Virus record (IMG/VR): IMGVR_UViG_3300043395_002349
Location: 36,090-100,089 of that record
DNA length: 64,000 bases
From: a virus
Reading direction: 5' to 3' (one strand)
Shown in pieces: positions 12,499 to 58,561 of this stretch (positions are counted from its first letter, which is position 1; every line of letters begins with the position of its first letter). A model generated the notes under the pieces. That model saw only the letters and a list, made by a program, of their open reading frames with translations. It searched no databases and was not told the DNA's origin. The position numbers and the translations under genes are program-made.

Positions 12499-12530
12499 CA
12501 AATATACAAAAAAAATACCTTAAATAAAAA
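12499..12530 (-). promoter_or_regulatory. Putative Bacteroidota sigma70 -7 element upstream of primase
   Basis: TATATTTG on the minus strand (12499-12506); -33 element imperfect. Confidence 0.5.
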
Positions 12531-44225: not shown

Positions 44226-44624
44226 CTAACCAACTTTTAAGGTAAGTTTTTTTGGCTTTGATTCTTCTTTACGTTCTACAACAATAGAAAGAATACCATT
44301 TTTAATTTCTGCTTTTGCATTTCTACCATCTAAATCCTTACCTAAAGTAATTCTCTCATCAATATTAGCAATTAATTGCTCAAATGGAGTTTCTGTATCT
44401 TTTGTTTCTTTTTTAGCCTTTATTTCAATCTTATCTTCGTAACAATTGATTTCAATATTCTTAGGGTCGTGTCCTAATACTGATAATGCTATGTAAGCTT
44501 TATCATCTTTTACATCTACTGCGAATTTTGAAGGAACAAAAGTTCTTGAATGAGTTTCCCACAAAGGTCTACTGTCTGCTACTAATAATTTTTCAACGAA
44601 TTTGTCAAAATCTGAATAAAACAT
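44226..44624 (-). CDS. Small heat-shock protein (Hsp20/alpha-crystallin)
   Basis: AKAEIKNGILSI...KPKKLTL. Confidence 0.85.
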   Translation of the reverse strand: MFYSDFDKFVEKLLVADSRPLWETHSRTFVPSKFAVDVKDDKAYIALSVLGHDPKNIEINCYEDKIEIKAKKETKDTETPFEQLIANIDERITLGKDLDGRNAKAEIKNGILSIVVERKEESKPKKLTLKVG

Positions 44625-44698: not shown

Positions 44699-45397
44699 TT
44701 AGAATTTACCAACATTAAATGTAAAATTGTCAGTAGAGTCTTGTCTTTTTATTTCATCCTGTCTTTCAATTATTGTACTCATAAAATCAGCCCAATGTAA
44801 AATATATTGAATAGATGAACGAAGGGTATTTTTAACATTAAACGTCTTTAAATATTTTTCATTATCTTCATCATACAATCCATCAGTAAGTTTAATACCA
44901 AAATATTCGTTTTCGTTATATTGAATACCATAGTGGTTTAATGTAAAAAACGTTCTATCCGTCAATGTCATAAATGGTATTTCATCATTACGTTTATAAT
45001 AATCCATACGATTTTCTATTTCCCATTTATTTGTATTTGGTACATAGTGTATTTGACCTTTAGTACCTAATTTACCTAAATCATGATGCAATGCTGCAAA
45101 TATTAATTCTTCATCTGTAAAATCAATTGTACCACCCTGTGCAGCAAATAATTCTTTTACCTTTAAAGAATTTTTTGTTACATTAAAAATGTGGTCAATA
45201 TAGCCACCATCATAACAATTGTGATACAACAATCTACCACTTGCAGGTGAAATTGTTAAATTCATTCCTAATTCATCTTCGGAATACATATGAAGTAATT
45301 TTTCAAGTCTTTCACCTTTAAAATACTTCTTTAGAACCAAAATAAATTTATCATAGTTCTCTTTTAATTCTTCTGCTGTTTTCTTTTTCTGTGTCAT
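44699..45397 (-). CDS. HD-domain phosphohydrolase
   Basis: PAS...H...GGYIDH...LHHDLGK...HWAD. Confidence 0.85.
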   Translation of the reverse strand: MTQKKKTAEELKENYDKFILVLKKYFKGERLEKLLHMYSEDELGMNLTISPASGRLLYHNCYDGGYIDHIFNVTKNSLKVKELFAAQGGTIDFTDEELIFAALHHDLGKLGTKGQIHYVPNTNKWEIENRMDYYKRNDEIPFMTLTDRTFFTLNHYGIQYNENEYFGIKLTDGLYDEDNEKYLKTFNVKNTLRSSIQYILHWADFMSTIIERQDEIKRQDSTDNFTFNVGKF

Positions 45398-45400
45398 AGT

Positions 45401-46042
45401 TTATAGTTTAAAAAATTTATCTGCGTTTTTTATTTTACTAATTCTGTTTTCTGCAATTTTACAAGTACTCTCAATTATCTCACTACCAATATATTTTCTA
45501 TCGTTTTCTACACATACGATTGCCGTAGTACCACTACCCATAAAAGGGTCAAACACTATTTGTCCTTTTTTAGTATATGAGTTAATAAATTGTTTTACAA
45601 TATTAGGTGAAAAGTTATATGTGTACTCTGGTGTTGCAGGTACAAATTTTTCACTAAATACATCAGGTAAAAGTGGATGTTTTGTTGCGTTTCTATCAAA
45701 TGTTAAAATAAATGTATATCCGTGTCGGTACATATCAATAGTATCTTCCTTTTTTACCCATAATTTTTGTGATTTTAACGTCCAACCTGCATTATTCATT
45801 AAATCACAAATGAGTATATGTTTTTGTATAACTGTTCCTTCCGCTTTTCTATCAGAAACAAATATAGTAACTACATTTCCTTTTGGATTAAATTTTGCAA
45901 TTCTTTGGTCTAAGAAATCAACGTATGGTGTTATGTTTTTAGTATCTGCACCTATTTCATCAAAATCAGGTGGAGATGTAATAATATAATCGTACTCTAA
46001 ATTACGATTAAGTGTTTCTAAACAATCTTCATTATAAATCAT
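45401..46042 (-). CDS. DNA methyltransferase, beta-class order, variant SPPD motif
   Basis: EDCL...TSPPDF...VFDPFMGSGTT...IGSEI. Confidence 0.8.
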   Translation of the reverse strand: MIYNEDCLETLNRNLEYDYIITSPPDFDEIGADTKNITPYVDFLDQRIAKFNPKGNVVTIFVSDRKAEGTVIQKHILICDLMNNAGWTLKSQKLWVKKEDTIDMYRHGYTFILTFDRNATKHPLLPDVFSEKFVPATPEYTYNFSPNIVKQFINSYTKKGQIVFDPFMGSGTTAIVCVENDRKYIGSEIIESTCKIAENRISKIKNADKFFKL

Positions 46043-46374: not shown

Positions 46375-46968
46375 TTATTCACAAATTATTTTTACAACTT
46401 TTTGTATAGAATCTATTTTAAATTTAGAAAATAAATTATCTTTTTTGGTTTCAATGGAATATTTTGCTTTACCAACAAATGTGATTGTATCACCTCTCAT
46501 TTCAGGAACAGTTTTAAATGTAATCTCTACTTTACCAAAACTTATATCAGATGTTTTATTAATACCATCATATAGATAAACACCATTAGGAACATAATTT
46601 CCTATTTTAACTGTCATCCATTTACCCAAATATTCATTAAAATAAGATTTCCAAATTTCGGTTGTGTTATTAGATGTTGTTAAAAAAGCATATGAACTTT
46701 TCCATTCAACTGAACCTACAACGGGCGATGGTATTGTATTTAATTTTCCATCTACTAAAAATTTTCCTACTATATTATTGTAATTAGTACGTGTAGAATC
46801 AATTTTAAGATGATAAAAATTATTATTATCTTTCGGTAAAGAATTTGTTTGTACTTGATTTAGTACGGAATCAATTGTAAATTCTACTTTTGGTTCGGTA
46901 TATTTTGGTTGTTGTATTTCTTTAGAACATCCAAATAAAATGATGCTAAAAAATAATAAAATTCTCAT
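46375..46968 (-). CDS. Lipoprotein
   Basis: MRILLFFSIILFG-CSKE signal peptide II, Bacteroidota-style. Confidence 0.7.
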   Translation of the reverse strand: MRILLFFSIILFGCSKEIQQPKYTEPKVEFTIDSVLNQVQTNSLPKDNNNFYHLKIDSTRTNYNNIVGKFLVDGKLNTIPSPVVGSVEWKSSYAFLTTSNNTTEIWKSYFNEYLGKWMTVKIGNYVPNGVYLYDGINKTSDISFGKVEITFKTVPEMRGDTITFVGKAKYSIETKKDNLFSKFKIDSIQKVVKIICE

Positions 46969-46993: not shown

Positions 46994-47025
46994 TAAAGAT
47001 ACGAAAAAATTATTATATTTCCAAA
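46994..47025 (-). promoter_or_regulatory. Bacteroidota-type promoter
   Basis: TTTG-N20-TATCTTTA. Confidence 0.6.
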
Positions 47026-47783
47026 AATGAATAATGTTTTTTTAAGTGTTTATATAACTTATTGGAATACAATGAATTATGCAATGGTCCTGGATGCCCT
47101 AAGTCTGCCCCATAATCTATAAAATTATCATAATCACCATCAAATCTATTTTCATCAATAAAATTATTATCTAATCTAAACCCATTCCATAAAAAAGGTA
47201 TATTTTTGTCTTTTAAAAAATATGTTATAAGAAGGTGTGTTCTATACCAATTATTAAAATCATTATATTCATTTTGTAATCTAGTATTTAATTCGTGTAT
47301 GTATCTCCCCTCCTCCGTTTCTTGCATAAATCCCCATTTTATACCCGGTATATAAGGTTCTATTCCACCCTCTTTTGAATACAATTCTCTCCTGTGTGGG
47401 TATGTGTACATAATTAATACTAAATCAGGTTTTACTTCATCAAAATATGTAAGTAAACATCTACTTATAAAATCATTACTTCTACCGGCTGTTCCAAAAT
47501 TTAAATTAACCCCATTTTTTATTAATTTTGAAATTTGTGCCGGCCATGTTTCATCGTCATTAACACCAACACCTTCTGTAAATGAACATCCAATTGACAT
47601 TATTTTAAATCCTTCTTTTTTTATACTATCACCTCTAAATCCCAATTCATTATAAGTGTAAGTACATTTTCCCGAATTATCAGAACCCGATGAATTAAAT
47701 GTATTATTAATTCTATTTGATAATTGAAATTTATATGATGATATTTCAAATGTATCTTTTTTCCAATAATTTAATATTTTCAT
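47013..47783 (-). CDS. SGNH/GDSL-like hydrolase
   Basis: YNELGFRG, IGCSFTEGVG, NFGTAGRSN, DLGHPG. Confidence 0.75.
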   Translation of the reverse strand: MKILNYWKKDTFEISSYKFQLSNRINNTFNSSGSDNSGKCTYTYNELGFRGDSIKKEGFKIMSIGCSFTEGVGVNDDETWPAQISKLIKNGVNLNFGTAGRSNDFISRCLLTYFDEVKPDLVLIMYTYPHRRELYSKEGGIEPYIPGIKWGFMQETEEGRYIHELNTRLQNEYNDFNNWYRTHLLITYFLKDKNIPFLWNGFRLDNNFIDENRFDGDYDNFIDYGADLGHPGPLHNSLYSNKLYKHLKKHYSFLEI

Positions 47784-47786
47784 AAT

Positions 47787-48290
47787 TTAAATTAATTTAT
47801 TTATAGTATTATTTTCTAAATGAAAATGTTGCAAAAACCATATTAATGAATATCTGTTTCCTTTTGTTATTTTAGTGATTTCATGATTTAATTTTACATC
47901 AAAAATATATGTATTACCAATTTCTTTTTTTAAAATAATTTCCGTTTTATCATAGATTTTAAATTCGCCACCATTAAAATCATCATTAAGTAAAACACCA
48001 ACTGAATATATTCTTTTATCTCTTATATCGTTGTGTACTCCAAAATAATCCCCCTCACTATATATGTGAAAATGAATTTGTTTTTTTAATGTTTTTATTT
48101 TTATAGATGTGTTTTGTTCAAAAAAATTTTTTAATTTTTCAAAAATCCAGTTTGTATCATTGTTTACTAAGATTGTGTACGATTTATATTTTCTATCACC
48201 ACTATCCCAATATTGATTATTTTTTTTAACTAAATTAATTATTTTTTGACATTCATCTTTATTAAATAAGATGGTTTGATGTAAATTCAT
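47787..48290 (-). CDS. 2OG-Fe(II) oxygenase
   Basis: HND...LNDDFNGGEF...HEIT...G.RYS. Confidence 0.9.
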   Translation of the reverse strand: MNLHQTILFNKDECQKIINLVKKNNQYWDSGDRKYKSYTILVNNDTNWIFEKLKNFFEQNTSIKIKTLKKQIHFHIYSEGDYFGVHNDIRDKRIYSVGVLLNDDFNGGEFKIYDKTEIILKKEIGNTYIFDVKLNHEITKITKGNRYSLIWFLQHFHLENNTINKLI

Positions 48291-48819
48291 TTTTTATTTC
48301 AATTCTATATTTTTTACCAATTGGAAAAGTTAATTCTTTTAATTCGGGTATATCAACATATTCAATTAATTTGCTTATACCATTTCTATAATACAATTCT
48401 TCATATGAAATAATAAATCCATTTCTTTTTTCATAAAATTTTTTAAATTCTTTTTTTAAATTTTGAAAACTATTTTTTCCTTCTTCATCATAATATTTTT
48501 CTTTGTTTGTCCAAAAACCATGCCAATTTTTTGTTTTCTGTGCATGTAACCAAGATTCTATTTGTAATTCTTCGTTTTCTCGATAAAGATATATTACCTT
48601 TTCTGAAATTTTAAATAGGTTTTCAAAATCCAGTCCTGAATGAAAATCTTCTTTAATTAATAAATGTTTTGTTTTGTATTTGTATGGAAATTCTTTTGTA
48701 TACCATTTTGAATTTATATTTGATGGTAAAAATAAAGTTGTAAAATCTTTATTCATAGAAAACCAAGTTGTTAAATTTGATGAACCGGTTCTAGGTTCTG
48801 CCAATATTAATATTACCAT
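48262..48819 (-). CDS. Sulfotransferase-like protein (Stf0-like)
   Basis: PRTGSS PAPS loop, LYREN...QIESW, ISYEEL. Confidence 0.7.
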   Translation of the reverse strand: MVILILAEPRTGSSNLTTWFSMNKDFTTLFLPSNINSKWYTKEFPYKYKTKHLLIKEDFHSGLDFENLFKISEKVIYLYRENEELQIESWLHAQKTKNWHGFWTNKEKYYDEEGKNSFQNLKKEFKKFYEKRNGFIISYEELYYRNGISKLIEYVDIPELKELTFPIGKKYRIEIKNEFTSNHLI

Positions 48820-49341
48820 TTAAACTAATGTTTTATTTTTTTTTTCTTTTAATACTTTAAATGCTATTGTAATTCGCATATCTATCATTTCTTTTCTAGG
48901 TGCCATACCTCTATGCCAGATATTTCCATTAAAAAATACGGCACTATTTGGTATTGGTATATTACATATCAATTCATTATTGATTTTAAAATATGTTTCA
49001 CCTATTATTGATACATCATTATTTTTTGTAAAATAATACAAAAATGTATGTTCCAATTCATTATTATTATCTTGATGCCACATTCCATCTTGTCCTAATG
49101 TTTGACCATTTGCATATACTCTATCTAATGAATACTCCGTACCAATTATTTGTTGGATTTTGCCAAAAAATTCTTTTGTTATGAATTCAAATTCATTTAA
49201 ATCTGCATACCAAAAAAGAGATTTAGAATATGAGTTTAAACTACTAGATGCACCAAAAATCCACTTTACTTTATTTGATAAAATGTATTTAAGTTTATCG
49301 TATTCATCTTTATTTAAAATATTTTCATATTTTTCAATCAT
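48820..49341 (-). CDS. 2OG-Fe(II) oxygenase
   Basis: YANGQ...HQD...GET.F...HRG...RITIAF. Confidence 0.88.
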   Translation of the reverse strand: MIEKYENILNKDEYDKLKYILSNKVKWIFGASSSLNSYSKSLFWYADLNEFEFITKEFFGKIQQIIGTEYSLDRVYANGQTLGQDGMWHQDNNNELEHTFLYYFTKNNDVSIIGETYFKINNELICNIPIPNSAVFFNGNIWHRGMAPRKEMIDMRITIAFKVLKEKKNKTLV

Positions 49342-49832
49342 AATAATGTTGTTTGCTTTTTATCATTTTTAGTTGTTAATTTAAAAAATGAAACTAATGA
49401 ATATCTATTTCCTTTTTTTACTTTTGTTATTCTATGCCATAATTTATCATCCATAATTAGTGATAAATTTATTTCTGGATTAATTGTTACTTTATTATTA
49501 TTTTGTGAAATATATTCAAAATTACCACCTTCAAAATTTGTATTAAAATATGTAATTATTGTTAAATGTGAATTATCGTAATGAAATGTATCTGCGTTTT
49601 CGTCATTATTAGTTACTTTATTTATCCACATAGGCTGAAGCTCATACCTATCACCAAATGTTTGTTTAACATAATTGCTTATTTTATTTTTAAAATCTAA
49701 TAATTCATCTGTTTTAATTGTTTGTGTATTGTATATTTGAATAAAATCTGCAACAAAATTATTACATAAATTATTTAAGTAATCAATATCTTTATCCGAT
49801 AAGAAACCATATACTTTTATTAAATCAATCAT
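49338..49832 (-). CDS. 2OG-Fe(II) oxygenase
   Basis: HYD...FEGGNF...HRITKV..GNRYS. Confidence 0.88.
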   Translation of the reverse strand: MIDLIKVYGFLSDKDIDYLNNLCNNFVADFIQIYNTQTIKTDELLDFKNKISNYVKQTFGDRYELQPMWINKVTNNDENADTFHYDNSHLTIITYFNTNFEGGNFEYISQNNNKVTINPEINLSLIMDDKLWHRITKVKKGNRYSLVSFFKLTTKNDKKQTTLL

Positions 49833-50431
49833 AATAAACTATTTTCTTTTTTTGAAAATTCAAATCCTACATTTCCTGCTATTACTATTCTATCTAAATT
49901 AGCATTTGGAGCCGGCATTGGTGCATGTAATAAATCAGCCTGCATTATAATTAAATCATCTTCTTCTGGCCTTACCCAATATTCTTTTTTATTCTTACCC
50001 TTTATAAATAATACACCATCATTTTCATTCATAATATCTGGCATTTGAATATAATAAACATAAGTGTAAGTTGGAATAAAACTTTTGTTTTTTTCATTTA
50101 TTTCCGTATGTGAATGATATTTGTCCATAAAAATCCCATTATGAAAATTTAATTGAACAGGATTTTTAGCACTCACAATATTAATCCACTCTTCTGTTTG
50201 TATTGTATTAAATGGGATTTTTATAGTTGATTCGTACAATGCTTTGCACATATCAATTCCCAAATTGCAAATTTTATTTAATAGAATATCTTTTTTTGGA
50301 ATTGAAATAGAATCAAATTTATTTTTTGAATCAATCTTTTTAATTGAATCTATAATTAATTTTTTACTATCTAATAGATTTAATTTTGTTTTCCAAATAT
50401 ATGTTTCCGTGTCAAAGTAAATTTGCTCCAT
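49829..50431 (-). CDS. 2OG-Fe(II) oxygenase-like, HxH type (TIGR02466-like)
   Basis: WIN...HSH...YVYYI...H.P...RIVIAGN; start at ATG 50431 (TAATG coupling). Confidence 0.75.
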   Translation of the reverse strand: MEQIYFDTETYIWKTKLNLLDSKKLIIDSIKKIDSKNKFDSISIPKKDILLNKICNLGIDMCKALYESTIKIPFNTIQTEEWINIVSAKNPVQLNFHNGIFMDKYHSHTEINEKNKSFIPTYTYVYYIQMPDIMNENDGVLFIKGKNKKEYWVRPEEDDLIIMQADLLHAPMPAPNANLDRIVIAGNVGFEFSKKENSLL

Positions 50432-50967
50432 TATAACAAACTTTTTTCTTTTTTGACTGATATCCAATCTACCAATAAATGTATTCTATCTTCATCTCCA
50501 TCATTAATTACACCATGTACTTTTTCCGTATTATTGATTTCCCATAATTCACCTTCTTTTAAATTTTTAGTTTCTATATCCACACTAAAAAAACATTTAT
50601 CGTTTGTAATAATAGGAATGTGTATTCTGTGTGATATTTCAAAACTTTCATGAACATCGGTATGTGTTTTAATTGCTTTGCCTGCTGGTAAATTTATTAA
50701 TAATGCATTGAATAAATAACCATCACCAATTTGTTTTTTAAAAATTTCAGATATTATTTCTAAATCATCTTTAAATAATTCATATTCTTCTCTGTATATA
50801 GCCTTTTTTCTTTCTTCATCAAAAATAATAGGTACTGATTTTGTGTGTATATGAACTCCTTCTGACATTTTTTGTCTGTATTTCCATGACTCCCAATCTA
50901 ATTTAGAAAGCTTTTTCTTTATTTTAGAAACATCTATTTTACCATAATATTTAAAGTTCATATTCAT
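50431..50967 (-). CDS. Aspartyl/asparaginyl beta-hydroxylase-like 2OG oxygenase
   Basis: HTD...RIHIPI.TN...GELWEINN...HGVIN...RIHLLVD. Confidence 0.85.
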   Translation of the reverse strand: MNMNFKYYGKIDVSKIKKKLSKLDWESWKYRQKMSEGVHIHTKSVPIIFDEERKKAIYREEYELFKDDLEIISEIFKKQIGDGYLFNALLINLPAGKAIKTHTDVHESFEISHRIHIPIITNDKCFFSVDIETKNLKEGELWEINNTEKVHGVINDGDEDRIHLLVDWISVKKEKSLL

Positions 50968-51616
50968 ATAGTTTAAAATCGTTTATATACATATCATATA
51001 TTTTTTTACCAAACTGATTTTTAAAGGATTCGTAATTTACTATATTCTTTTCACCCATATTTGGTCTTATATTTTTTAGCTCAACTAACTCTATGTTTAT
51101 ATATTCCGATAATGGTTTTATATCTTTTGTTATTTCTTCAAATTTAAAAATTTTTATTTCTTTTTTTGATTCATTCCACCAATTCTGCTCCCACCAAAAT
51201 CGCAAACCACCCCAATTTTTATTGTGAAATTTTATTTGTTTATAAGTTAATCCACCATAAAATTTTTCATAAAAGTTATCCATATTTGTTTTGGATATAT
51301 TTTTATATGTTTCTACCTTTTCTATCATTTGTTCTAGTGATATATCTTCCCTTCCCATTATTTCTATTTGATGTATATAAGCTGAAATAAATCTATCAAA
51401 TGGATTTCTAACAAATTGTATTACTTTATATTCATCTATATTTTGTATATTATATAAATCAATTATTTCATCTAACGTTAAATGTGTTATTGGGTGTTTT
51501 ACATTTTTTAATGGAGTATTAAATACAACACCAATTTCTTCCAAACTTCTTATAATAGAATTTGATGCTGTTTTTGGTGGTGTTAGTAATATTAATTTGT
51601 GTTTATTAGAAACCAT
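50951..51616 (-). CDS. Sulfotransferase family 2
   Basis: PPKTASNS, VRNPFDRFISAY, YINDF. Confidence 0.85.
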   Translation of the reverse strand: MVSNKHKLILLTPPKTASNSIIRSLEEIGVVFNTPLKNVKHPITHLTLDEIIDLYNIQNIDEYKVIQFVRNPFDRFISAYIHQIEIMGREDISLEQMIEKVETYKNISKTNMDNFYEKFYGGLTYKQIKFHNKNWGGLRFWWEQNWWNESKKEIKIFKFEEITKDIKPLSEYINIELVELKNIRPNMGEKNIVNYESFKNQFGKKIYDMYINDFKLYEYEL

Positions 51617-52134
51617 TATAATAGACTGTTAATATTTTTAATACTTTTTTTGATAAAAATAACTAAAACCTCTCTATTCCCACTTTCAACAGGCGTAACA
51701 CTATGCGTTAAATCTGCATCAAATTCTATCATATTACCAAATTTTAATTCAATGTGTTTTCCATCTAAATAAAAGTTCCCCCCTTCAAATCCATTACTTA
51801 GTATCATTACACATGTCCTTATTGATGAATGAGTATCGGTATGTTCATGTGCACCCTGACCAATTCCATAATTTACATAATGTACATCTGCTATATATTC
51901 TTGTTTTATATCGTACTTTACATATTTTTTAACAATGTCCATCAATTGTTTATTATGTAAATCACACCAAAAATTTTCTGAATAATCAAATAAAAAAGAA
52001 TTATAATAAGTTTTATCGACTCGTTTGTTGAATTTGTTTTCTAAATCATCACCTGAATTTTCATTTCCTATTTTATACACTTTTTTTATTTCTTCAATAT
52101 CATTTTCTTTTATATCGTAAATGTTGTATATCAT
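51616..52134 (-). CDS. 2OG-Fe(II) oxygenase
   Basis: HTD...FEGGNF...HSVTPVESGNR. Confidence 0.9.
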   Translation of the reverse strand: MIYNIYDIKENDIEEIKKVYKIGNENSGDDLENKFNKRVDKTYYNSFLFDYSENFWCDLHNKQLMDIVKKYVKYDIKQEYIADVHYVNYGIGQGAHEHTDTHSSIRTCVMILSNGFEGGNFYLDGKHIELKFGNMIEFDADLTHSVTPVESGNREVLVIFIKKSIKNINSLL

Positions 52135-52137
52135 ATA

Positions 52138-52641
52138 TTACAATAATGTTTTTTGTAATTTAGTATTTTTATTTTCAAAAAAACATACAAAACTAAATCT
52201 GTTACCATTTGTTACTGGTAATACTCTATGCCATACATTATCAGTCATAATTACTGCTGAATTTATTTTTGGTAAATATTTTTTTTGTATTCCATTTTTA
52301 TCAATATATTCCAATTCACCACCATCAAAATTATCATTTAGATATATTACAATTGATACCTCTGCTATATCTTTATGAAAGTTATCATTTTTATTAGTAG
52401 TAGTATTAATATAGTTTATCCATGTTGATTTTGATGGAATTAATATATATTCATCACCCAATTCATTTAGTAATATTGTATTTACACTTTTAATAAATTC
52501 TGGAATTAATTTTTGATTAATTTCTATTCTATTATAGAAGTTATTAAAATTAGGTTTATCTGTTATTACAAAATTGTTGCATTCGTTTTGTAATATTTTC
52601 AGCTCTTCATTATTTAATATGTTATCGACTATTTTTATCAT
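52138..52641 (-). CDS. 2OG-Fe(II) oxygenase
   Basis: HKD...YLNDNFDGGEL...HRVLPV..GNRFS. Confidence 0.9.
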   Translation of the reverse strand: MIKIVDNILNNEELKILQNECNNFVITDKPNFNNFYNRIEINQKLIPEFIKSVNTILLNELGDEYILIPSKSTWINYINTTTNKNDNFHKDIAEVSIVIYLNDNFDGGELEYIDKNGIQKKYLPKINSAVIMTDNVWHRVLPVTNGNRFSFVCFFENKNTKLQKTLL

Positions 52642-53681
52642 AAAAGTTTATTCTTTGTTTCTATAAAGTATTTTTCGACAATATCATTCATATTATGAAT
52701 TGCTTTAAATTTTAAATTAATTTTTTTTAATTCTTTTAAAAATAAATTAAATTCAGGATGATTCTCATCCCAAATTTGTTTTATCATAAATTGACTATCA
52801 CTATATGTTCCCCAATTAGTTATTTTATTAAAAAATACATCAACCTTATTATTAAATATCTTCATCATTAAATTATAAAAATCTTCCATTTGTGTATAGT
52901 TTGTATCTTGAACAACAAATGATACTTTTTTATTTCCTATTTTTATTTTAGATATAAACTCTAAATTTTTTATTAAGGTATTCCAATTTCCACCACGTCT
53001 TATTAATTTATAAGTTTCTTCATTGGCTGCATCTATACTAATTTCTATTGTTTTTATTAAGTTGTGTATGTGTGATAAATCGTTCCAAAGTTTTTCTGTT
53101 AATAATAATCCATTAGTGTGTATGTGTATATTTTTTAAATTTTTAAATTTTGTTTTATCAAAATTTAAAAGTAATTTTCTTATAGATTTAGAGGCAAATG
53201 GGTCGGCTGTGCCTGATAAGTACAATAATGCAATATCTTTTCCAAATTTTTCGGTGATTTTATCTATCATATCATCTATAAAAATGATATCATCTTCATT
53301 TGCCATTATGTTTTCTGTTCTGCAGGATGGGCATGATAGATTACAACTTCTATCAAATGCAAGATTTATGTTGACTGGAGTTTTATAATCTTCTTCTTTG
53401 AAATCCGATTTATTTATAAAACAAGAATGTTTTTTTCCCGTTGTTAATAATTCGGATAAATAAGGACATTTTGTTTTTGAACAATATGAGTATGAACCAT
53501 CTAAAATTGATTCTTTTATTTTTTTATACTCTTCCGTATTCCATGCGTTTTCTATATCTTCTAAAGATGAAAGTTTAACTGGAAGCCAAGACGGGCAACA
53601 GCTATATACAGCGTGCCTATGTGCTTCCATATAAACAAATGGAGTGATGCATACAAATTGTTTTAATATATCGTTATTCAT
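52638..53681 (-). CDS. Radical SAM enzyme with N-terminal SPASM/twitch-like Cys domain
   Basis: CNLSCPSC (CxxxCxxC), TNG, SIDA; N-terminal C..PF...CC...AWN...C....C. Confidence 0.88.
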   Translation of the reverse strand: MNNDILKQFVCITPFVYMEAHRHAVYSCCPSWLPVKLSSLEDIENAWNTEEYKKIKESILDGSYSYCSKTKCPYLSELLTTGKKHSCFINKSDFKEEDYKTPVNINLAFDRSCNLSCPSCRTENIMANEDDIIFIDDMIDKITEKFGKDIALLYLSGTADPFASKSIRKLLLNFDKTKFKNLKNIHIHTNGLLLTEKLWNDLSHIHNLIKTIEISIDAANEETYKLIRRGGNWNTLIKNLEFISKIKIGNKKVSFVVQDTNYTQMEDFYNLMMKIFNNKVDVFFNKITNWGTYSDSQFMIKQIWDENHPEFNLFLKELKKINLKFKAIHNMNDIVEKYFIETKNKLL

Positions 53682-54370
53682 TATAATAATTTATTTTTTA
53701 TAAATGGTTTTTCAAACCGTTCCCAAATAAAATTTTTTAATGTATCATCTATAATTATTTTGTTATTTTCTGGTCTGTTTTTATTTTTTTTATCTAACGA
53801 TTGTTTTATTTTTTTACCATATTTTGTTTCTAAAAAATTATAAAAAGAGTTTATATTTTTTAAATCAAATTCATATGTACAACGTTCCCCATCTTTCCAA
53901 TAGTTTTCAGGTAAAAACATTGAAATATGACCTACAAATTCTAAATTATCTGTTTTTACTAATTCTTTATAAATTGTTTCCCAATTTTTCCATTTTTCTT
54001 TTGTAACAAATCCTGCAATTAATTTATTTGAAAATTGATAATCAAAATGTTTATATATAAAATTATTATCAATATCCTTATATTCTATAATAGTTTCTAA
54101 ATTATGATTATATTGTGTACCATCAAAAAAATATTGTAAAGCACTCATCCATCTATCAAACCAATTTCTTGTAATACAAATCGTTTCTTTAATTCCAAAT
54201 TCATTGTATAGATGTGATTTTCGTATATGAAAATGTTTATCTTCATTTTCTAATAACAAACTTGCTTTTTTTATTTCTAATTCAGAATTTAATAAATCAT
54301 ACTCGATAGTAGTACTTGCACATCTTGGTACGGAAATCCAAATCAAGTCATTGTTTATCAATAATGCCAT
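53681..54370 (-). CDS. Sulfotransferase-like protein
   Basis: VPRCASTT, TRNWFDRWMSA. Confidence 0.7.
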   Translation of the reverse strand: MALLINNDLIWISVPRCASTTIEYDLLNSELEIKKASLLLENEDKHFHIRKSHLYNEFGIKETICITRNWFDRWMSALQYFFDGTQYNHNLETIIEYKDIDNNFIYKHFDYQFSNKLIAGFVTKEKWKNWETIYKELVKTDNLEFVGHISMFLPENYWKDGERCTYEFDLKNINSFYNFLETKYGKKIKQSLDKKNKNRPENNKIIIDDTLKNFIWERFEKPFIKNKLL

Positions 54371-54373
54371 ATA

Positions 54374-54919
54374 CTAATATAAGGATTTTTTTTGAATTTT
54401 CAAAAAAGGCCAACAATTTAATGAATATCTTATACCGTCTGTTATTTCGTTTATTTGGTGTTCTATATTAGAATCAAATATAAAAACACTGCCTATACTT
54501 TTTTCTATTGTATGTTCTATACCATCTATTTTATATACAATATCACCATCTACATAATCATCATTTAATTGAAATATGAATGTTAGTGTTGCACCCAAGT
54601 TCTTTATTGCATGACTATCTGAATGATATTTTAAAAAATCCGTCTTTATATATTTGTTAAATGCAAAATAATCTATTTTTGTGTAAATAGAATTTTTATA
54701 CACATTTAGACCGTTTATAAAATCTAAAATTTTGTTTTCTAAATTTGGGAAATTATTTGGTGGTATAAAAGTTAAATGTCTTTTATTTATTGTATTGTTT
54801 TGTATTGACCCATTTTTACTATACGTTTCCGATTGTTGAAGTTCTAATGAATTTCCAAATAAAATAATTTCCTCACACTCTTTTTGTGTAAGAAAATTTT
54901 TTTTAAATAACGTAAACAT
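54374..54919 (-). CDS. 2OG-Fe(II) oxygenase
   Basis: HSD...QLNDDYVDGD...HQINEITDGIRYS. Confidence 0.88.
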   Translation of the reverse strand: MFTLFKKNFLTQKECEEIILFGNSLELQQSETYSKNGSIQNNTINKRHLTFIPPNNFPNLENKILDFINGLNVYKNSIYTKIDYFAFNKYIKTDFLKYHSDSHAIKNLGATLTFIFQLNDDYVDGDIVYKIDGIEHTIEKSIGSVFIFDSNIEHQINEITDGIRYSLNCWPFLKIQKKSLY

Positions 54920-55221
54920 TATAAAAGTGTTTTAGAACCTTTAGGTTTATCTAATATATCAGTTGCGTTTTCATCTATTTCTTGCCATTTATTTAATTGA
55001 CAAGCATTATATTTACGTGAATATATTTTTTTGTTTAAAGGACAGTTACAATCATTACAATATGAATCATTTTTAAAAAATCTATTAGGTCTAAAATGTT
55101 CACAACCTAAACAAATTTCATATCTTTTTTGTGCTAATTCTAATTGTCCAGGTCGTTTCTTTTCATCATCTGTAAATGAATCATACCAGGACAAAATTAT
55201 TTCCTTAATATCTATACCCAT
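54919..55221 (-). CDS. Small Cys-rich metal-binding protein (DUF6171-like)
   Basis: RYEICLGC...CNDCNCPL..K......C..NKW. Confidence 0.7.
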   Translation of the reverse strand: MGIDIKEIILSWYDSFTDDEKKRPGQLELAQKRYEICLGCEHFRPNRFFKNDSYCNDCNCPLNKKIYSRKYNACQLNKWQEIDENATDILDKPKGSKTLL

Positions 55222-55245
55222 AACTTATTTATTTAACACTAATTA

Positions 55246-55323
55246 TTACGAATTTGCTGTGATAATTAATCCACCAATTTGCGTAAGTATAGTATTCATT
55301 GTATCTTTTTCTGCTGCTGTCAT
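55246..55323 (-). CDS. 25-aa small ORF MTAAEKDTMNTILTQIGGLIITANS
   Basis: Not in the ORF track; fills the gap between two minus-strand genes; A-rich leader before the ATG. Confidence 0.55.
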   Translation of the reverse strand: MTAAEKDTMNTILTQIGGLIITANS

Positions 55324-55341
55324 TTTTTTATTTTTTATAGG

Positions 55342-56844
55342 TTATACACAATAATATTGGCAAATATTTACTGGTGAATTTTTACAACATTGTGCCATCG
55401 GGCAACATCCATTTACATATCCAGGTTGATACGGAGGACATTGTTTTGAATAACAAGCAATATTGTGTTCAATAGTTGCATATGATGTATTTGAATCCGA
55501 ACCTGTTTTTGTTAAGAAATAGTGTGTTCTGGAAACTGTTATATACCAACCATTAAAAAATTCTTTACTAGTAGATATACTTGCAATTTCTTTTAATTCA
55601 TATTGTAGTTCACCATTTGTAGTGTCTACCATTATAATTTTATCACCAACTACCATTTCATGTAAATAAATAAATTTAACATTATTATCTTTTAAACTTA
55701 AATAACTTGAAATACCAGTATCATTCCAATCCGAACCATCTGTAAATGTTAAATTAAATCTACTTGTAAATGTAGATACTTTCACTTTTCCCAATACTTC
55801 ATTTGTTGAATAAGTAGAACCACTTACCAATTGTTCAAAGTTAATATTGAAATTTTCTTGCTCATCAATTGGATTTGTAATTTGTCCATTTGTATCAATA
55901 TCAATTGTTTTTAAAACATCACCAACTTCTAATTCTAATGCAGTTTTAAATGTTCCATCTGCCAATTCCACTAAATCATCATCTTCTAATTTTGGTAGGC
56001 CACCGATTTGATTTTTAGAAACAATATATGACCATTTATTATCTGAACTTATTTCAAATGTACTATTATCGTATACAGGAATTACTGGAACTTCCATTTG
56101 TGTAAATTTAGTATATGCACCTACCTTAATTGATTCTAATGATGGGGGATATAATAAATTTATACTTCTAATTACCTGAATATGGTTTTGATAAAGATTG
56201 CTTTCATTAAAATGATATTCCATTAAAAAATAATCTTTATTTACAAAATTTGCTATTACACTATTTAATTCGTCTTGTGAAGATACCTTAAATAATTTTG
56301 GATATACATTTATATCGTAGAAAGGTAAAACCGCTTTTAATATAAAGTTTGGATTGTTACCATTATCAGGTATAGATGTAATATGATTTACAATAGCATT
56401 AGTTTCATCCATATATGCAAATTGTGAACCAAACTCTGTATCTTTAATTAGATTAAGAAATCCTACTTTATTTTTACAATATTCTTCATCAACAATTGCA
56501 GTTGTATCATATGCACTTCTAATAATAAGAACATCTGCAGAATCTTCTACATATGGAACTGTAATTGAATCTTCACCTACTTTATGATTTTCATATGCAA
56601 CACCTATGTTATTTAATTCGGCCTCTAATACGACACCAAATTCTTTATTTAAATTACCAATGTAATGAACTTTGGTAAAAGAGTTGGATTGAATAAATGC
56701 GATAAGTTCTGCTAAATCAAATATATCGTTTTTATTTTCTAATGTAATATCACCATCTATTCCTAATGCGGTATTTATTTCAACCGGTACTAATTGACCG
56801 GCTTTATTATACATAAAATCTGTACCTAAAAGTATTGTTCTCAT
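55342..56844 (-). CDS. Circularly permuted ATP-grasp + Hint domain + C-terminal 39-aa Cys-rich peptide
   Basis: N-terminal GTDF...G...EINT, later FILKA, LMEY, VIRS; Hint LADG.FK...LEVGD (aa ~285) to YITV..THYF...HN (aa 461); tail C-C-CC-CC-C-C. Confidence 0.8.
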   Translation of the reverse strand: MRTILLGTDFMYNKAGQLVPVEINTALGIDGDITLENKNDIFDLAELIAFIQSNSFTKVHYIGNLNKEFGVVLEAELNNIGVAYENHKVGEDSITVPYVEDSADVLIIRSAYDTTAIVDEEYCKNKVGFLNLIKDTEFGSQFAYMDETNAIVNHITSIPDNGNNPNFILKAVLPFYDINVYPKLFKVSSQDELNSVIANFVNKDYFLMEYHFNESNLYQNHIQVIRSINLLYPPSLESIKVGAYTKFTQMEVPVIPVYDNSTFEISSDNKWSYIVSKNQIGGLPKLEDDDLVELADGTFKTALELEVGDVLKTIDIDTNGQITNPIDEQENFNINFEQLVSGSTYSTNEVLGKVKVSTFTSRFNLTFTDGSDWNDTGISSYLSLKDNNVKFIYLHEMVVGDKIIMVDTTNGELQYELKEIASISTSKEFFNGWYITVSRTHYFLTKTGSDSNTSYATIEHNIACYSKQCPPYQPGYVNGCCPMAQCCKNSPVNICQYYCV

Positions 56845-56863
56845 AATTTGTTTTGTTTACCTC

Positions 56864-56877
56864 TATAAATATAAATA
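56864..56877 (-). promoter_or_regulatory. Tandem putative late-promoter motif TATTTATA
   Basis: TATTTATATTTATA 20 nt upstream of the Hint gene; the same motif precedes the structural genes. Confidence 0.55.
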
Positions 56878-56888
56878 TCTTTAATTAT

Positions 56889-57497
56889 TTATAAAATTGT
56901 TTTTGTTCTTTTTTTATAACTTTTTTCTAAATCTAATATACAATAGTTTCCTGCTAATACTATTCTTTCTTTATCTGAACCTAAATTTATTTCAGGTCTA
57001 TGTGGCAAATCAGCCGAAAAAAATATTAAGGAACCTTCCATTGGTTTTATTTTATGTTCTATTTGAGTATCATCTGTTCTAAATAAAATTCTACCCGAAT
57101 TTTCACCTTCACCTAAATTTGTAGGTAGTTGAATGTAAAAAACCCAAGTATATTGGTTTTCTAAATAAAGTTCATCATTTAAAGTATGAATATGATATCC
57201 CGAATGTTTATTTTTTTCATCACTAATATAACACCAATATTTTAAATGATAAGGGGTATTAAATTCATAACCATATATTTCACAAAATTTTTCCCAAATA
57301 ATATTTTTTAATTTTGATAAAGATTCGGTTTGTATTAATATATCAGATTGTATACCTGGTTCCTTTTCTGTGCCTTTTTCAAATGTCCGTTTACTTACAT
57401 CGACATTAAATTTAATTTCTTTAATAAGTTGTTCTTTATTATATTCAATATCTTTAATGATATTAATTTTATATTTTTCTGAAAGTTGTAATTCCAT
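56889..57497 (-). CDS. 2OG-Fe(II) oxygenase-like, HxH type (TIGR02466-like)
   Basis: HIH...WVFYIQ...GSLIFF...H.P...RIVLAGN. Confidence 0.78.
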   Translation of the reverse strand: MELQLSEKYKINIIKDIEYNKEQLIKEIKFNVDVSKRTFEKGTEKEPGIQSDILIQTESLSKLKNIIWEKFCEIYGYEFNTPYHLKYWCYISDEKNKHSGYHIHTLNDELYLENQYTWVFYIQLPTNLGEGENSGRILFRTDDTQIEHKIKPMEGSLIFFSADLPHRPEINLGSDKERIVLAGNYCILDLEKSYKKRTKTIL

Positions 57498-58022
57498 TTA
57501 AAATACCTTTTTTTCTTTGGTTAAAAAACATTGTAATGAAATTCTTATATCAGCATTTAAATTTATAGTGGTAACACAATGTTTTGTTCCACCTGTTAAA
57601 AATACGCCTGTGTTTTTATCTGGTTTTATTGCCTTTATTTCATCATCTTCTTCATACATAAAATACCCACCCCAATCACTTTCCCATTTTTCATTTAAAT
57701 AAACTGTAAGTGCTCCTTTATATAAACCATCATTGTGCCATGTAATATAACTTAATTTAGGCCAAAAATGTATTTTTAAACCCGTTACAAAAAATGGTAT
57801 TTGTAATTCTATTTCTTTTTTAAGTAGATTAAATATTTCACTATCTTTATCTGAAAAATCATATATTACAACCGGTGTACTACTATTAATTAAATATTCA
57901 TCCCAAAATGCAGTGCTTGTATATAAATTACTATTTTTGTCCGTTTTGATTTTTTTAATATAATCAATTAGTTTAGTATATGTTTCATCCGAAAAAAATG
58001 AATTAAATTTAGTAACACTCAT
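57498..58022 (-). CDS. 2OG-Fe(II) oxygenase
   Basis: WHND...YLNEKW...WGG...HCV...RISLQ. Confidence 0.9.
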   Translation of the reverse strand: MSVTKFNSFFSDETYTKLIDYIKKIKTDKNSNLYTSTAFWDEYLINSSTPVVIYDFSDKDSEIFNLLKKEIELQIPFFVTGLKIHFWPKLSYITWHNDGLYKGALTVYLNEKWESDWGGYFMYEEDDEIKAIKPDKNTGVFLTGGTKHCVTTINLNADIRISLQCFLTKEKKVF

Positions 58023-58561
58023 TAAAATAACGTTTTTTTATTTTTTAATTTATCTTTTTTATACATTAAATAAAGTTGAACAACACTTTCATTTTCACCA
58101 CAAACCAATGTATCTCTCCAATGTTCAAATTTATTAGAATCAATAATAACCAACGCATCACCAACTTTTATATCATATCCAATTTGGTTACCATCAATTA
58201 AAAAATATAAAGGCCATTCCTTATTTGTTTTTTGTAAGCATACTGAAATGGTTATGTTTATTGAATCTTTATCTTTATGTTTTTCTAAATGAGAACCATT
58301 TCTATATTCTCTAATATATGCATTAAAATTTTCAATTCGTATTTCTTTATCGTTTATTATATTTTTAACAACAGGTTTTAATTTTTCTACATATTCATCA
58401 AAAAATTTAACTAATCCAAATCCATAAGAATTTGCACCACTATCTACAATTGGAATATCTAAATCAATATTGTATCTATTTCTTTTTTTTTCTTCGTAAA
58501 ATTTATCTAATAATATTTTACATTCATCTACCGAAACTATGTTTTTTATATATGAAACCAT
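58022..58561 (-). CDS. 2OG-Fe(II) oxygenase-like protein
   Basis: Y.R.Y...L..HKD...ITISVCL...WPL...HWR. Confidence 0.8.
   Translation of the reverse strand: MVSYIKNIVSVDECKILLDKFYEEKKRNRYNIDLDIPIVDSGANSYGFGLVKFFDEYVEKLKPVVKNIINDKEIRIENFNAYIREYRNGSHLEKHKDKDSINITISVCLQKTNKEWPLYFLIDGNQIGYDIKVGDALVIIDSNKFEHWRDTLVCGENESVVQLYLMYKKDKLKNKKTLF

Follow-up and report, generated by a model that had tools for sequence, protein, structure and literature searches.

What do the enzymes of a gene island act on, when modifying enzymes encircle a single hub gene? We studied such an island, which is conserved among relatives, in a large uncultured freshwater phage, of which a stretch of 64,000 nucleotides (the window) was analysed. 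The sequence-only reading of this DNA had described oxygenases, sulfotransferases and a radical SAM enzyme around a gene with a Hint domain, preceded by a tandem late-type motif. The enzyme island and the Hint gene proved mostly real, the tandem motif did not, and the inventory was incomplete, lacking a ligase domain, a micro-ORF of 25 aa, a partner protein with six cysteines and a C-terminal tag shared by the enzymes. The reading that we prefer, tentatively and with confidence a little short of even, is that of a module, conserved and specific to phages, for the production and release of a variable disulfide-rich peptide, which would be modified by enzymes docked through their tag.

Organization and conservation of the island

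The island (positions 47787-58561) comprised 17 tightly packed genes and one micro-gene, every one of them on the minus strand. The features are given below; single genes are named by their first coordinate, and "tag" denotes the shared C-terminal motif.

56889-58561, minus strand: upstream of the hub, three genes for 2OG-Fe(II) oxygenase-like proteins (58022-58561, 57498-58022 and 56889-57497; Pfam or motif), with tags KTLF, KKVF and KTIL, respectively
55993-56844, minus strand: hub residues 1-284, circularly permuted ATP-grasp (carboxylate-amine ligase) domain (AF2 model, fold search)
55462-55992, minus strand: hub residues 285-461, Hint domain without N-terminal nucleophile (Lys285) and with an invariant Glu-His-Asn461 end (fold match)
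55345-55461, minus strand: tail of 39 aa containing 8 Cys (IACYSKQC...QYYCV), the peptide predicted to be released (translation)
55246-55323, minus strand: conserved micro-ORF of 25 aa (MTAAEKDTMNTILTQIGGLIITANS), 18 nt past the hub stop codon
54919-55221, minus strand: 100-aa zinc-ribbon-like protein with six invariant Cys (CxxC...CxxCxC...C), tag KTLL (weak DUF6171 and zinc-ribbon matches)
54374-54919, minus strand: 2OG oxygenase-like, HSD motif, tag KSLY (phmmer to 47787, E 4e-9)
53681-54370, minus strand: sulfotransferase-like, tag NKLL (PAPS-loop-like P-R-C-A-S-T; invariant H48, R68, S76)
52638-53681, minus strand: radical SAM enzyme carrying an auxiliary-cluster (twitch-like) domain at its N-terminus, tag NKLL (PF04055, E 1.2e-12; CX3CX2C)
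47787-52641, minus strand: nine more tailoring-type genes, namely 2OG oxygenases 52138, 51616, 49829, 49338, 48820 and 47787, the Asp/Asn hydroxylase-like 50431, Sulfotransfer_2 50951 and the sulfotransferase-like 48262 (Pfam, paralogy, motifs, alignment)
47013-47783, minus strand: protein of 256 aa on the edge of the island, perhaps esterase-like (very weak DUF6071 and acetylxylan-esterase matches only), untagged here (FLEI) and tagged in 41 of 56 homologues

In agreement with the earlier claim that the genes are mostly translationally coupled, 14 of the 17 junctions were overlaps or gaps of no more than 3 nt, and the larger gaps (44, 18 and 24 nt) were all located around the hub gene and the micro-ORF. 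The late-type motif said to stand in tandem upstream of the Hint gene was present only once on the coding strand (TATAAATA at 56893-56886, overlapping the stop of the upstream gene), the tandem pair being located on the opposite strand, and the motif was not enriched in the window (23 found vs 29.8 expected).

About 160 related loci were found in IMG/VR, in two deep clades, which combine the hub with a micro-ORF, the zinc-ribbon-like protein with six Cys and an enzyme set that varies. In the 80 hub-seeded loci the 6-Cys protein and/or tagged enzymes adjoined the hub every time; conversely, the hub was present in all radical-SAM-seeded loci with enough upstream DNA and in 60 of the 63 sulfotransferase-like-seeded loci with room for it. 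The second clade (34-38% identity) had the same partners in another gene order, and at least one oxygenase or sulfotransferase-like gene was present in all 38 non-redundant complete loci. The 6-Cys protein adjoined the hub in 79/80 loci and was encoded directly upstream of it in clade 2. The micro-ORF was found in 79/80 clade-1 loci (pooled pN/pS 0.36; C-terminal consensus I-G-x-L-I-[VI]-x-A-N-S), and its position in clade 2 was taken by a different one of 45-50 aa, with another sequence and C-terminus. These comparisons support the view that enzymes and Hint-peptide gene belong to a single conserved module.

The hub protein and its cysteine-rich tail

The hub is a protein of 500 aa in which a circularly permuted ATP-grasp ligase is followed by a Hint domain and the 39-aa tail; no signal peptide was found in it. 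The earlier assignment of a Hint gene gained a strong match, at the level of fold and in a predicted model. In the VIA search the domain matched inteins, BIL2 and hedgehog (Z 13.9, rmsd 2.3-2.5 Å over about 145 residues), and residues 285 to 461 of the model superposed on the intein from residue 1 to the last, with Lys285 in the position of Cys1 and Asn461 in that of the terminal Asn. The Hint region gave no Pfam or PDB sequence match, and the family profile no significant PDB match. K285, E459, H460 and N461 were invariant in the hub family, with E-H-N unchanged in hundreds of sequences right where the Hint fold ends; the block-B His was absent, and a His at block F:13 was common, not invariant. 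The domain has lost the N-terminal cleavage residues and kept the terminal His-Asn. Since the residue following E-H-N varied (V, G, A, Y, L, F and others), the invariant triplet suggests cleavage and not splicing. In related domains His G:6 and Asn G:7 act in C-terminal cleavage, and type A BILs mostly cleave (PMC4031507). The releasable peptide of the sequence-only reading can be considered a prediction. It is backed by the position of the invariant His-Asn, precisely where an intein would end, and by natural variants that enclose the Cys peptide between the hub Hint and a further domain, either a second Hint domain with Cys1 (P0174, PF14890 E 2e-10; P0227; P0214) or a Peptidase_S74 domain (P0184, E 8.5e-5).

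The tail had been described as rich in Pro, Tyr, Asn and Cys, and indeed it has 8 Cys, 5 Pro, 5 Tyr and 3 Asn among its 39 residues. The 171 unique tails of the family were 23-97 aa long (median 40 aa), with many Gly, Pro, Ser and Tyr and few charged residues, and 169 of them had 6, 8 or 10 Cys. Every tail contained at least one Lys (within C-x-K in 154) in an otherwise Lys-poor, hypervariable sequence. The tails change faster than the hub body, and they appear to be swapped by recombination, with the exchange point exactly at the H-N boundary. The even Cys counts point to disulfides rather than to Cys crosslinks made by the radical SAM enzyme.

Alternatively, the Hint domain might be catalytically dead and the Cys-rich tail might stay on the ligase enzyme as a metal-binding or structural end. 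The loss of the N-terminal nucleophile and of the block-B His would agree with such a role, as would the sequence profiles, which fall short of inteins, and the low AF2 confidence in the tail. However, we regard this as very improbable, given that E-H-N is invariant precisely where the fold ends, that even Cys counts suit disulfide pairing, that the bracketed variants have another self-cleaving domain beyond the Cys segment, and that tail exchange occurs exactly at the H-N boundary.

The ATP-grasp domain alone was modelled with a pLDDT of 92.4, and its invariant residues include G7, D9, E22, N24, R109, D113, K126, N166, K170 and R226. Its fold matches in the wide VIA search were YgiC (7uka, Z 8.8), GSS22 (5oeu, Z 8.2) and GspS (2io7, Z 7.8), and in Foldseek eukaryotic glutathione synthetases (E about 1e-6); LysX/ArgX, which work with the zinc-ribbon carrier LysW, were also in the fold list (Z 5.4-5.5). 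The nearest structural relatives couple the C-terminal carboxylate of a peptide to an amine, and YgiC and YjfC are described in one report as peptide-spermidine ligases (PMC12568646).

The island enzymes and their shared C-terminus

The count of eleven 2OG-Fe(II) oxygenases in the sequence-only reading is fair if taken as approximate, with five above the Pfam cut-offs, three below them and three assigned by paralogy or motif. PF13640 exceeded the gathering score in 47787-48290, 51616-52134, 52138-52641 and 57498-58022 (E 5.5e-7 in the last), and 50431-50967 matched Asp_Arg_Hydrox above the gathering score (E 1.3e-14), as expected for the one Asp/Asn beta-hydroxylase-like enzyme noted before. 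Sub-threshold matches were obtained for 48820, 49829 and 56889 (PF13640, E 1.4e-4 for the latter). Pfam matches of 49338, 54374 and 58022 were very weak, and their assignment comes from paralogy or an HxD motif: 49338 is a paralogue of 52138 (E 3e-28), 58022 has only an HKD motif (Pfam E 0.22), and homologues of the 54374 protein were found at 69 loci and tagged in 53/53. Both HxH-type enzymes could be recognized (49829, HSH; 56889, HIH), but 51616 (HEH) makes a third.

Among the three proposed sulfotransferases, 50951-51616 is solid (Sulfotransfer_2, E 7e-12); it ends with YEL and is the sole untagged enzyme in 47787-58561. The assignments of 53681-54370 and 48262-48819 are at motif level: a Pfam search gave no match for either, and both have PAPS-loop-like invariants and weak profile matches to heparan sulfate 2-O-sulfotransferase (E 0.02, with the family profile of 53681) and NodH (E 0.4). 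The 53681 family was found at 50 loci and was tagged in 51/51. The radical SAM assignment was sound, the SPASM part was not, as a C-terminal SPASM domain is absent and an N-terminal twitch-like domain is present instead (NF033640 N_Twi_rSAM, E 3e-16, below cut-off; invariant C11, C28, C29, C67, C72, C113, C117 and C120, with five N-terminal Cys). This enzyme is missing in about half of the complete loci.

Enzyme content had been expected to follow peptide composition across phages. Over 38 loci, oxygenase number correlated with tail Pro (rho 0.38, p 0.019) and sulfotransferase-like number with tail Tyr (rho 0.37, p 0.024), as predicted but nominally only, since these values are uncorrected, ignore phylogeny and fall short after multiple-test correction; presence of the radical SAM enzyme was unrelated to tail Cys number.

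Nearly all island enzymes end with K-(T/S)-L-(L/I), which the hub (0/80) and the flanking genes do not. A strict match was found in 251/315 island proteins vs 1/94 flanking proteins; in this genome the tag counts were 13/16 island proteins vs 3/88 others, the tag being absent from the upstream region and the structural genes. Synonymous codons inside the tag were used at background frequencies; by this measure the tag is selected at the amino-acid level. Any within-genome "dialect" of the tag was weak at most.

The tagged enzymes could also have other substrates, such as proteins of the virion or tail fibres, glycans of phage or host, and proteins of the host, with the hub as a neighbour of separate role. 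In the L186/L208 and L194 lineages (records 3-18% complete) a tagged sulfotransferase-like gene adjoins proteins of ~820 aa, with no hub within 10 kb, and in many loci proteins of 900-2200 aa are located at the island edge. Moreover, 2OG oxygenase clusters of cyanomyoviruses lie near tail-fibre genes without a hub, and the solid sulfotransferase is a member of PF03567, a family known mostly for carbohydrate sulfotransferases. Nevertheless, the hub-enzyme linkage holds in about 160 loci and outlasts the change of gene order between the clades, the tag is limited to the island, and the oxygenases of cyanophage P-RSM4 lack it; we therefore consider other substrates unlikely.

The tag itself may instead be a degron or sorting signal, for a host protease/unfoldase or for particle packaging, that gives the enzymes common timing or location and has no part in docking on the hub. 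Its basic stretch and hydrophobic C-terminus presumably resemble C-terminal signals of bacterial AAA+ proteases, it occurs at two loci without a nearby hub, and the weakness of the dialect would fit as well. Its restriction to island genes against the other 88 genes of the phage, and its absence from the hub, make such a signal quite unlikely in our view.

A third possibility is conjugation, in which the ATP-grasp domain would activate a protein C-terminal carboxylate (of the enzyme tag or of the A-N-S end of the micro-protein) and couple it to the Cys peptide, at the conserved Lys or the new N-terminus; the peptide would then serve as a covalent label or anchor and not as an enzyme substrate. 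The chemistry of the nearest fold relatives, the presence of LysX/ArgX and LysW in the fold list, a free C-terminus under protein-level selection on unrelated enzymes, the Lys retained in every tail and the strictly conserved end of the micro-protein would all suit this scheme. It is, however, purely inferential, the micro-proteins differ between the two clades, in sequence as well as at the C-terminus, the choice of hydroxylases and sulfotransferases as partners is left unexplained, and we know of no precedent for a single ligase that caps a dozen dissimilar enzymes, so that we find it distinctly improbable.

For the RiPP-like tailoring proposed originally, the linkage of enzymes and hub is strong, and action on the peptide is what we infer from it. 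In the released-peptide reading that we favour, the oxygenases, sulfotransferase-like enzymes and radical SAM enzyme would use the tag to dock on one shared partner, most probably the hub, and hydroxylate, sulfate or otherwise modify the tail while it is still tethered. The ATP-grasp domain may make one amide bond, with the single conserved Lys or the new N-terminus as the amine, and cyclisation of Asn461 would free the 39-aa tail with its new N-terminus. After lysis the peptide would oxidise to three to five disulfides and work extracellularly as a variable binder or effector. As the hub lacks a signal peptide and disulfides normally do not form in the cytoplasm, this site of action is a guess.

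Relation to known systems

No published description of such a system was found in the literature, and neither the hub nor the radical SAM enzyme had a homologue among 50,697 phage records; nor did any relative of the system come up in a pattern scan of GTDB genomes. The Hint part is closest to Pretoxin-HINT (PF07591) polymorphic toxins and type A BILs, where likewise a variable C-terminal module that recombination exchanges directly follows a Hint domain, which retains its C-terminal His-Asn and is expected to cleave and not to splice. BIL2 (6y75) ranks with the best fold matches (Z 13.9), and a long family member, P0175, gave a sub-threshold PT-HINT match over the Hint region of the family (E 3.4e-4). 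Unlike these systems, the hub Hint has an invariant Lys in place of the N-terminal Cys/Ser, no block-B Thr/His and no significant sequence match, and it is phage-encoded and fused to an ATP-grasp ligase; the cargo is a Cys-rich peptide of 23-97 aa and not a toxin domain, with no co-varying immunity gene.

With RiPPs such as borosins and graspetides the island shares a conserved N-terminal "leader" before a hypervariable C-terminal core and clustered tailoring enzymes (2OG oxygenase, radical SAM, ATP-grasp), and with borosins in particular a modifying enzyme fused in cis to the presumed substrate. However, the leader here is a 461-aa two-domain protein, release is predicted to occur by Asn cyclisation in the Hint domain and not by a protease, and no RRE was found in this system, where recognition may run through the enzyme tag. 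The hub ATP-grasp is of the permuted GspS/glutathione-synthetase type, and a graspetide enzyme (7mgv) reached only Z 4.3. GspS, E. coli YgiC/YjfC and eukaryotic glutathione synthetase are the best matches to the whole N-terminal domain (Z 7.4-8.8; Foldseek E about 1e-6) and share the permuted topology and an E-x-N metal motif near the N-terminus, but the hub domain is only 10-13% identical, much shorter (284 aa) and fused to Hint and peptide.

Marine cyanomyoviruses (e.g. P-RSM4) also carry several small P4H-like oxygenases (25-35% identity) in a variable region, together with a Nol-like carbamoyltransferase, but these clusters have neither hub nor tag. Finally, the tails showed no sequence or solved-structure similarity to conotoxin/knottin-type peptides, and the system differs from these in its prokaryotic, viral origin and in the lack of a signal peptide; yet it resembles them in a conserved pro-region followed by a hypervariable mature peptide that is rich in Gly, Pro, Ser and Tyr, poor in charged residues and even in its Cys count. 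The island looks like an undescribed viral route to a decorated small peptide.

Predicted domains of the hub protein

The hub gene and two genes beside it in the island (47787-58561, minus strand) are the following:

54919-55221, minus strand: zinc-ribbon-like protein of 100 aa with six invariant Cys (the 6-Cys protein)
55246-55323, minus strand: micro-ORF of 25 aa, starting 18 nt past the stop of the hub gene, present in 79 of 80 clade-1 loci (pN/pS 0.36)
55342-56844, minus strand: the hub, a protein of 500 aa

The hub had no sequence match in Pfam, NCBIfam or the PDB over its 500 residues, and two domains were resolved in its AF2 model (pLDDT 81 overall and 92 for the N-domain alone). Residues 285-461 were modelled as a Hint beta-fold comprising blocks A to G (VIA Z 13.9, rmsd 2.3-2.5 Å over ~145 residues; Foldseek E 3e-7). 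The VIA matches were inteins, BIL2 and hedgehog, with the first and last intein residues aligned to hub residues 285 and 461, respectively, and by its modelled fold this domain belongs to the Hint/intein superfamily. Such membership was not found at the level of sequence: the Pfam models Hint, Intein_splicing and PT-HINT gave no match to the hub Hint at E values up to 10, the best intein match of the hub family profile in the PDB was not significant (E 0.53), and the sole lead was a sub-threshold PT-HINT match in one long relative.

In the family alignment, an invariant lysine (Lys285) occupies the position where inteins carry Cys1, and block B is devoid of Thr-x-x-His. Glu459-His460-Asn461 is invariant in clade 1, the hub clade of this phage, and is followed at +1 by nearly any residue (V, G, A, Y, L, F and others); in the second deep clade, clade 2, the Hint domain also lacks Cys1 and ends in [VI]-[MQ]-H-N. 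A self-splicing intein was rejected, since Lys285 is at position 1 and the +1 residue is not kept as Cys, Ser or Thr. The His-Asn pair that closes the fold is the one expected of a C-terminal-cleaving Hint domain of the type A BIL-like kind. For inteins, it is established that Asn cyclisation results in cleavage at the C-terminal junction (PMC4031507). Lys at position 1, the missing block-B motif and the invariant Glu-His-Asn together make up a residue set for Asn-cyclisation cleavage at the C-terminal junction only, and cyclisation of Asn461 is predicted to free the 39-aa tail. Alternatively, the Hint domain may be inactive; with Lys285 in place of Cys1 on one side and the invariant Glu-His-Asn on the other, we consider this highly improbable.

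The fold of residues 1-284 corresponded to circularly permuted ATP-grasp ligases, namely YgiC (Z 8.8), GspS (Z 7.8) and glutathione-synthetase-like proteins (Foldseek E ~1e-6), the top matches having moderate Z scores of 7.4-8.8 and being aligned over model residues 1-277. The non-permuted ATP-grasps RimK, LysX and Ddl aligned to the hub only from about residue 55. On the criterion of modelled fold, the N-domain is placed in the ATP-grasp superfamily, in the permuted branch of GspS and eukaryotic GS. Candidate Mg/ATP-binding residues, proposed from the family alignment only, are the invariant E22-x-N24, R109, K126, K170 and R226. YgiC and YjfC are reported to be peptide-spermidine ligases (cited in PMC12568646).

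Tail peptides and hub variants

The 171 unique tails had a median length of 40 aa, with Cys making up 19% of residues, and all but two of them contained 6, 8 or 10 Cys. Judged from these sequences, the even counts are a signature of paired disulfides, and they argue against Cys crosslinking by the radical SAM enzyme as a general feature. At least one Lys was present in every tail and exactly one in 121, usually in the context C-x-K; the clade 2 tails mostly contain six Cys, with Lys and a hydrophobic residue as their C-terminal end. The lysines and the ATP-grasp fold would fit a ligase-driven conjugation system, but the hydroxylases and sulfotransferases encoded beside the hub would not be explained by it, and we regard it as quite improbable. 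No similarity between the tail and solved structures was found.

Divergence is far faster in the tails than in the hub body: at 90-100% body identity, tails were 67% identical. In close hub pairs, synonymous and non-synonymous differences both jumped at the H-N boundary (e.g. pS from 0.02 to 0.46), which indicates that tails were exchanged by recombination and did not change through local selection alone. The tail as target of a diversity-generating retroelement was rejected, as its DNA is not repeated elsewhere in the 100-kb record (about half a genome). A polymorphic toxin system with a co-varying immunity gene directly downstream was not found either, since the variation of the tails is not shared by the downstream micro-ORF, which is conserved. 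This clade-1 micro-ORF, which the sequence-only reading did not mention, has a near-invariant C-terminal end, I-G-x-L-I-[VI]-x-A-N-S. Just downstream of the clade 2 hub (L227-L305, numbered among the related IMG/VR loci) there is a conserved micro-ORF of 45-50 aa (...ERPxTVIK...KTKxxTAFQxVVxxIKxKHLS), unrelated in sequence to the 25-aa one, and the clade-1 micro-ORF profile had no match in the clade-2 loci. One 211-kb IMG/VR record (L010 and L064) was seen to carry two hub modules, separate from each other; their tails, of 8 and 6 Cys, are unrelated and their enzyme sets differ.

More than 670 hub homologues of about 500 aa were found in metagenomes, and a library of 1.8 billion proteins yielded 358 representative clusters at 50% identity. 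The family was found in viral and metagenomic data only: a search of 50,697 cultured or deposited phage records gave no homologue of the hub or of the radical SAM enzyme, a pattern scan of GTDB representative genomes returned no relative of the hub, and megablast with the island gave no match. One hub-bearing contig of 10 kb (L275) carries a giant-virus MAG name (GVMAG) in IMG/VR, which is probably a binning artefact.

Several family members from the library-wide search (P-numbers) differ in what follows the H-N junction. P0174 (PF14890, E 2e-10), P0227 and P0214 have a second Hint domain, canonical and starting with Cys, after the Cys-rich segment, and in P0171 two Hint domains surround just a 7-aa Cys-free spacer, PNYSPFF. 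The double-Hint variants have H-N before the Cys peptide and a canonical Cys1 after it, which is the geometry of engineered intein-mediated backbone cyclisation; a cyclic disulfide-rich phage peptide is conceivable on this basis. In P0184 and four others, it is a Peptidase_S74 self-cleaving chaperone domain that comes after the Cys-rich segment. Unless the peptide is excised, its position between two self-cleaving domains is difficult to account for. Finally, P0175, P0176, P0187, P0204 and P0205 extend for 700-1240 aa beyond the junction, with Pfam BACON domains in both of the long-tail members scanned (P0175 and P0187), so the ligase-Hint module also carries large cargos; from their sequences, the BACON domains hint at Bacteroidota-associated phages.

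Island enzymes, their tag and genomic setting

The island contains 17 protein genes, and its tight packing was confirmed, as at 14 of 17 junctions the neighbouring genes overlap or lie at most 3 nt apart; sizeable intergenic gaps are present only around the hub gene. Of the 11 2OG-Fe(II) oxygenases counted by the sequence-only reading, five, one of them of the Asp/Asn-hydroxylase type, scored above the Pfam curated cut-off, three were sub-threshold and three were recognised by clear paralogy or the HxD motif only. Three sulfotransferases had been claimed as well: one is solid (50951-51616; PF03567, E 7e-12) and the other two (at 53681 and 48262) had no Pfam match, showing PAPS-loop-like and Arg/Ser invariants in family alignments and weak sulfotransferase profile matches (E 0.02 and 0.4). 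The radical SAM assignment held for the enzyme itself (347 aa) and failed for SPASM: there is no Cys beyond residue 120, and the extra Cys lie in an N-terminal twitch-like domain (NF033640, below cut-off). Sactipeptide- or ranthipeptide-type maturation, with a C-terminal SPASM acting on Cys, was rejected because the auxiliary Cys are N-terminal and the presence of the enzyme is unrelated to tail Cys number. The supposed tandem late-type motif upstream of the hub comes down to a single TATAAATA on the coding strand, with the two tandem copies antisense and the motif not enriched, which ruled out a T4-type late promoter; in sigma-70 promoter and terminator scans the signal was no higher than in shuffles.

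A feature missed by that reading is a C-terminal tag, K-(T/S)-L-(L/I): almost every island enzyme, whatever its fold, has [K/N]-[T/S/K]-[L/I]-[I/L] at its C-terminus. The strict pattern was present in 251 of 315 unique island proteins versus 1 of 94 flanking proteins, and in this genome the tag is carried by 13 of 16 island genes versus 3 of 88 others. The hub is never tagged, and neither are the oxygenases of cyanophage P-RSM4. Since synonymous codon use at the tag equals background, the constraint acts on the protein, and a DNA-level or translational-coupling motif was rejected. Genome-specific tag "dialects", as of a co-evolving receptor, were also rejected, the effect being marginal, limited to the last residue (0.50 versus 0.467, 6 of 500 shuffles) and confounded by relatedness. 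The tag could alternatively be a degron or sorting signal; the confinement to the island points elsewhere, and we judge it improbable.

Forward synteny was examined in 80 hub-seeded IMG/VR loci. The 6-Cys gene adjoined the hub in 79 of them, 50 had a member of the sulfotransferase-like family, 44 had the radical SAM enzyme and 60-69 had oxygenases, and all 38 non-redundant full-flank loci had at least one oxygenase or sulfotransferase-like gene. Conversely, the hub was present in all radical-SAM-seeded loci with enough upstream DNA and in 60 of 63 sulfotransferase-like-seeded loci with room for it. In clade 2 (34-38% identity) the same partners are retained, but here the 6-Cys gene immediately precedes the hub gene and enzymes lie on both sides. 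An enzyme array lacking the hub in related phages had been named as the finding that would speak against the sequence-only reading; linkage was kept in nearly all loci, the exceptions being two lineages with very incomplete records (L186/L208 and L194), in which a tagged sulfotransferase-like gene has ~820-aa proteins beside it and no hub was seen within 10 kb. These may reflect either hub-independent use of a tagged enzyme or the fragmentary records. They also lend some weight to the explanation that the tagged enzymes act on other substrates, which we find unlikely in view of the linkage elsewhere.

The IMG/VR virus record, whose bases 36090-100089 form the window, is 100 kb long and 53% complete (CheckV). 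The window has a GC content of ~27% and all its genes on the minus strand; baseplate-wedge-like proteins and a Nol-like carbamoyltransferase are encoded by the phage. Other genes of note are:

12520-14181, minus strand: DnaE-like polymerase fragment, best public match the 484-kb uncultured "huge phage" LR756508 (56% identity)
43254-44171 and 45401-46042, minus strand: two N6/N4 DNA methylase genes, either side of the Hsp20 gene
44226-44624, minus strand: Hsp20-family small heat-shock protein, syntenic with the island edge in ~30 loci
44699-45397, minus strand: 232-aa protein with no assigned family, syntenic with the island edge in ~30 loci
46375-46968, minus strand: 197-aa protein with a lipoprotein-type signal (MRILLFFSIILFGC...), conserved just downstream of the island in 13 related loci

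The DnaE-like match places the phage near jumbo/huge phages and not with T4-like cyanophages. DNA nearly identical to the hub region was found in freshwater and riverine metagenomes, and 24-34% of sampled words from this region were present in four metatranscriptome runs.

Models of peptide maturation

From the linkage evidence, the best reading of the hub and the enzymes is one functional module. As in RiPP clusters, a precursor with a variable core (the hypervariable tail) lies beside tailoring enzymes in conserved synteny. The earlier RiPP-like reading is thus borne out as regards hub-enzyme linkage, and the action of the enzymes on the tail remains its inferred part. A correlation of oxygenases with tail Pro and of sulfotransferase-like genes with tail Tyr, both predicted beforehand, was observed across loci, weak, uncorrected and only nominally significant. 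That the enzymes modify the tail and the Hint domain frees it has, in our view, a little less than an even chance of being right.

A further-reaching proposal, which is tentative and has a modest chance at best, is a new maturation logic. The substrate-bearing hub would recruit unrelated, exchangeable enzymes via their four-residue C-terminal tag, Asn cyclisation would release the peptide, and the hub's own ligase would close or conjugate it, with a head-to-tail or Lys-to-C-terminus lactam, or attachment to the micro-protein, as possible products.

Should the reading of a tailored and released peptide hold, large freshwater phages have a widespread system for hypervariable, decorated, disulfide-rich peptides, which would offer, as new tools and as new biology, a Hint domain dedicated to C-terminal release that leaves no trace, a peptide ligase fused in cis, and a short universal tag by which unrelated enzymes appear to be connected to one pathway. 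What advantage a lytic phage draws from a secreted or virion-bound mini-protein that evolves fast would then be a further question. Even conservatively, the sharply defined, tag-marked gene module is a testable handle on the long-unexplained 2OG oxygenase arrays of large aquatic phages.

Full-text literature searches returned no description of a ligase-Hint-peptide layout, and the system is new to the literature searched. RiPPs follow the leader-peptide/RRE rule, of which the proposed hub scheme would be the inverse, as the tag sits on the enzymes. Among known systems, the layout comes closest to pretoxin-HINT and BIL release modules and to enzyme-fused RiPP precursors.
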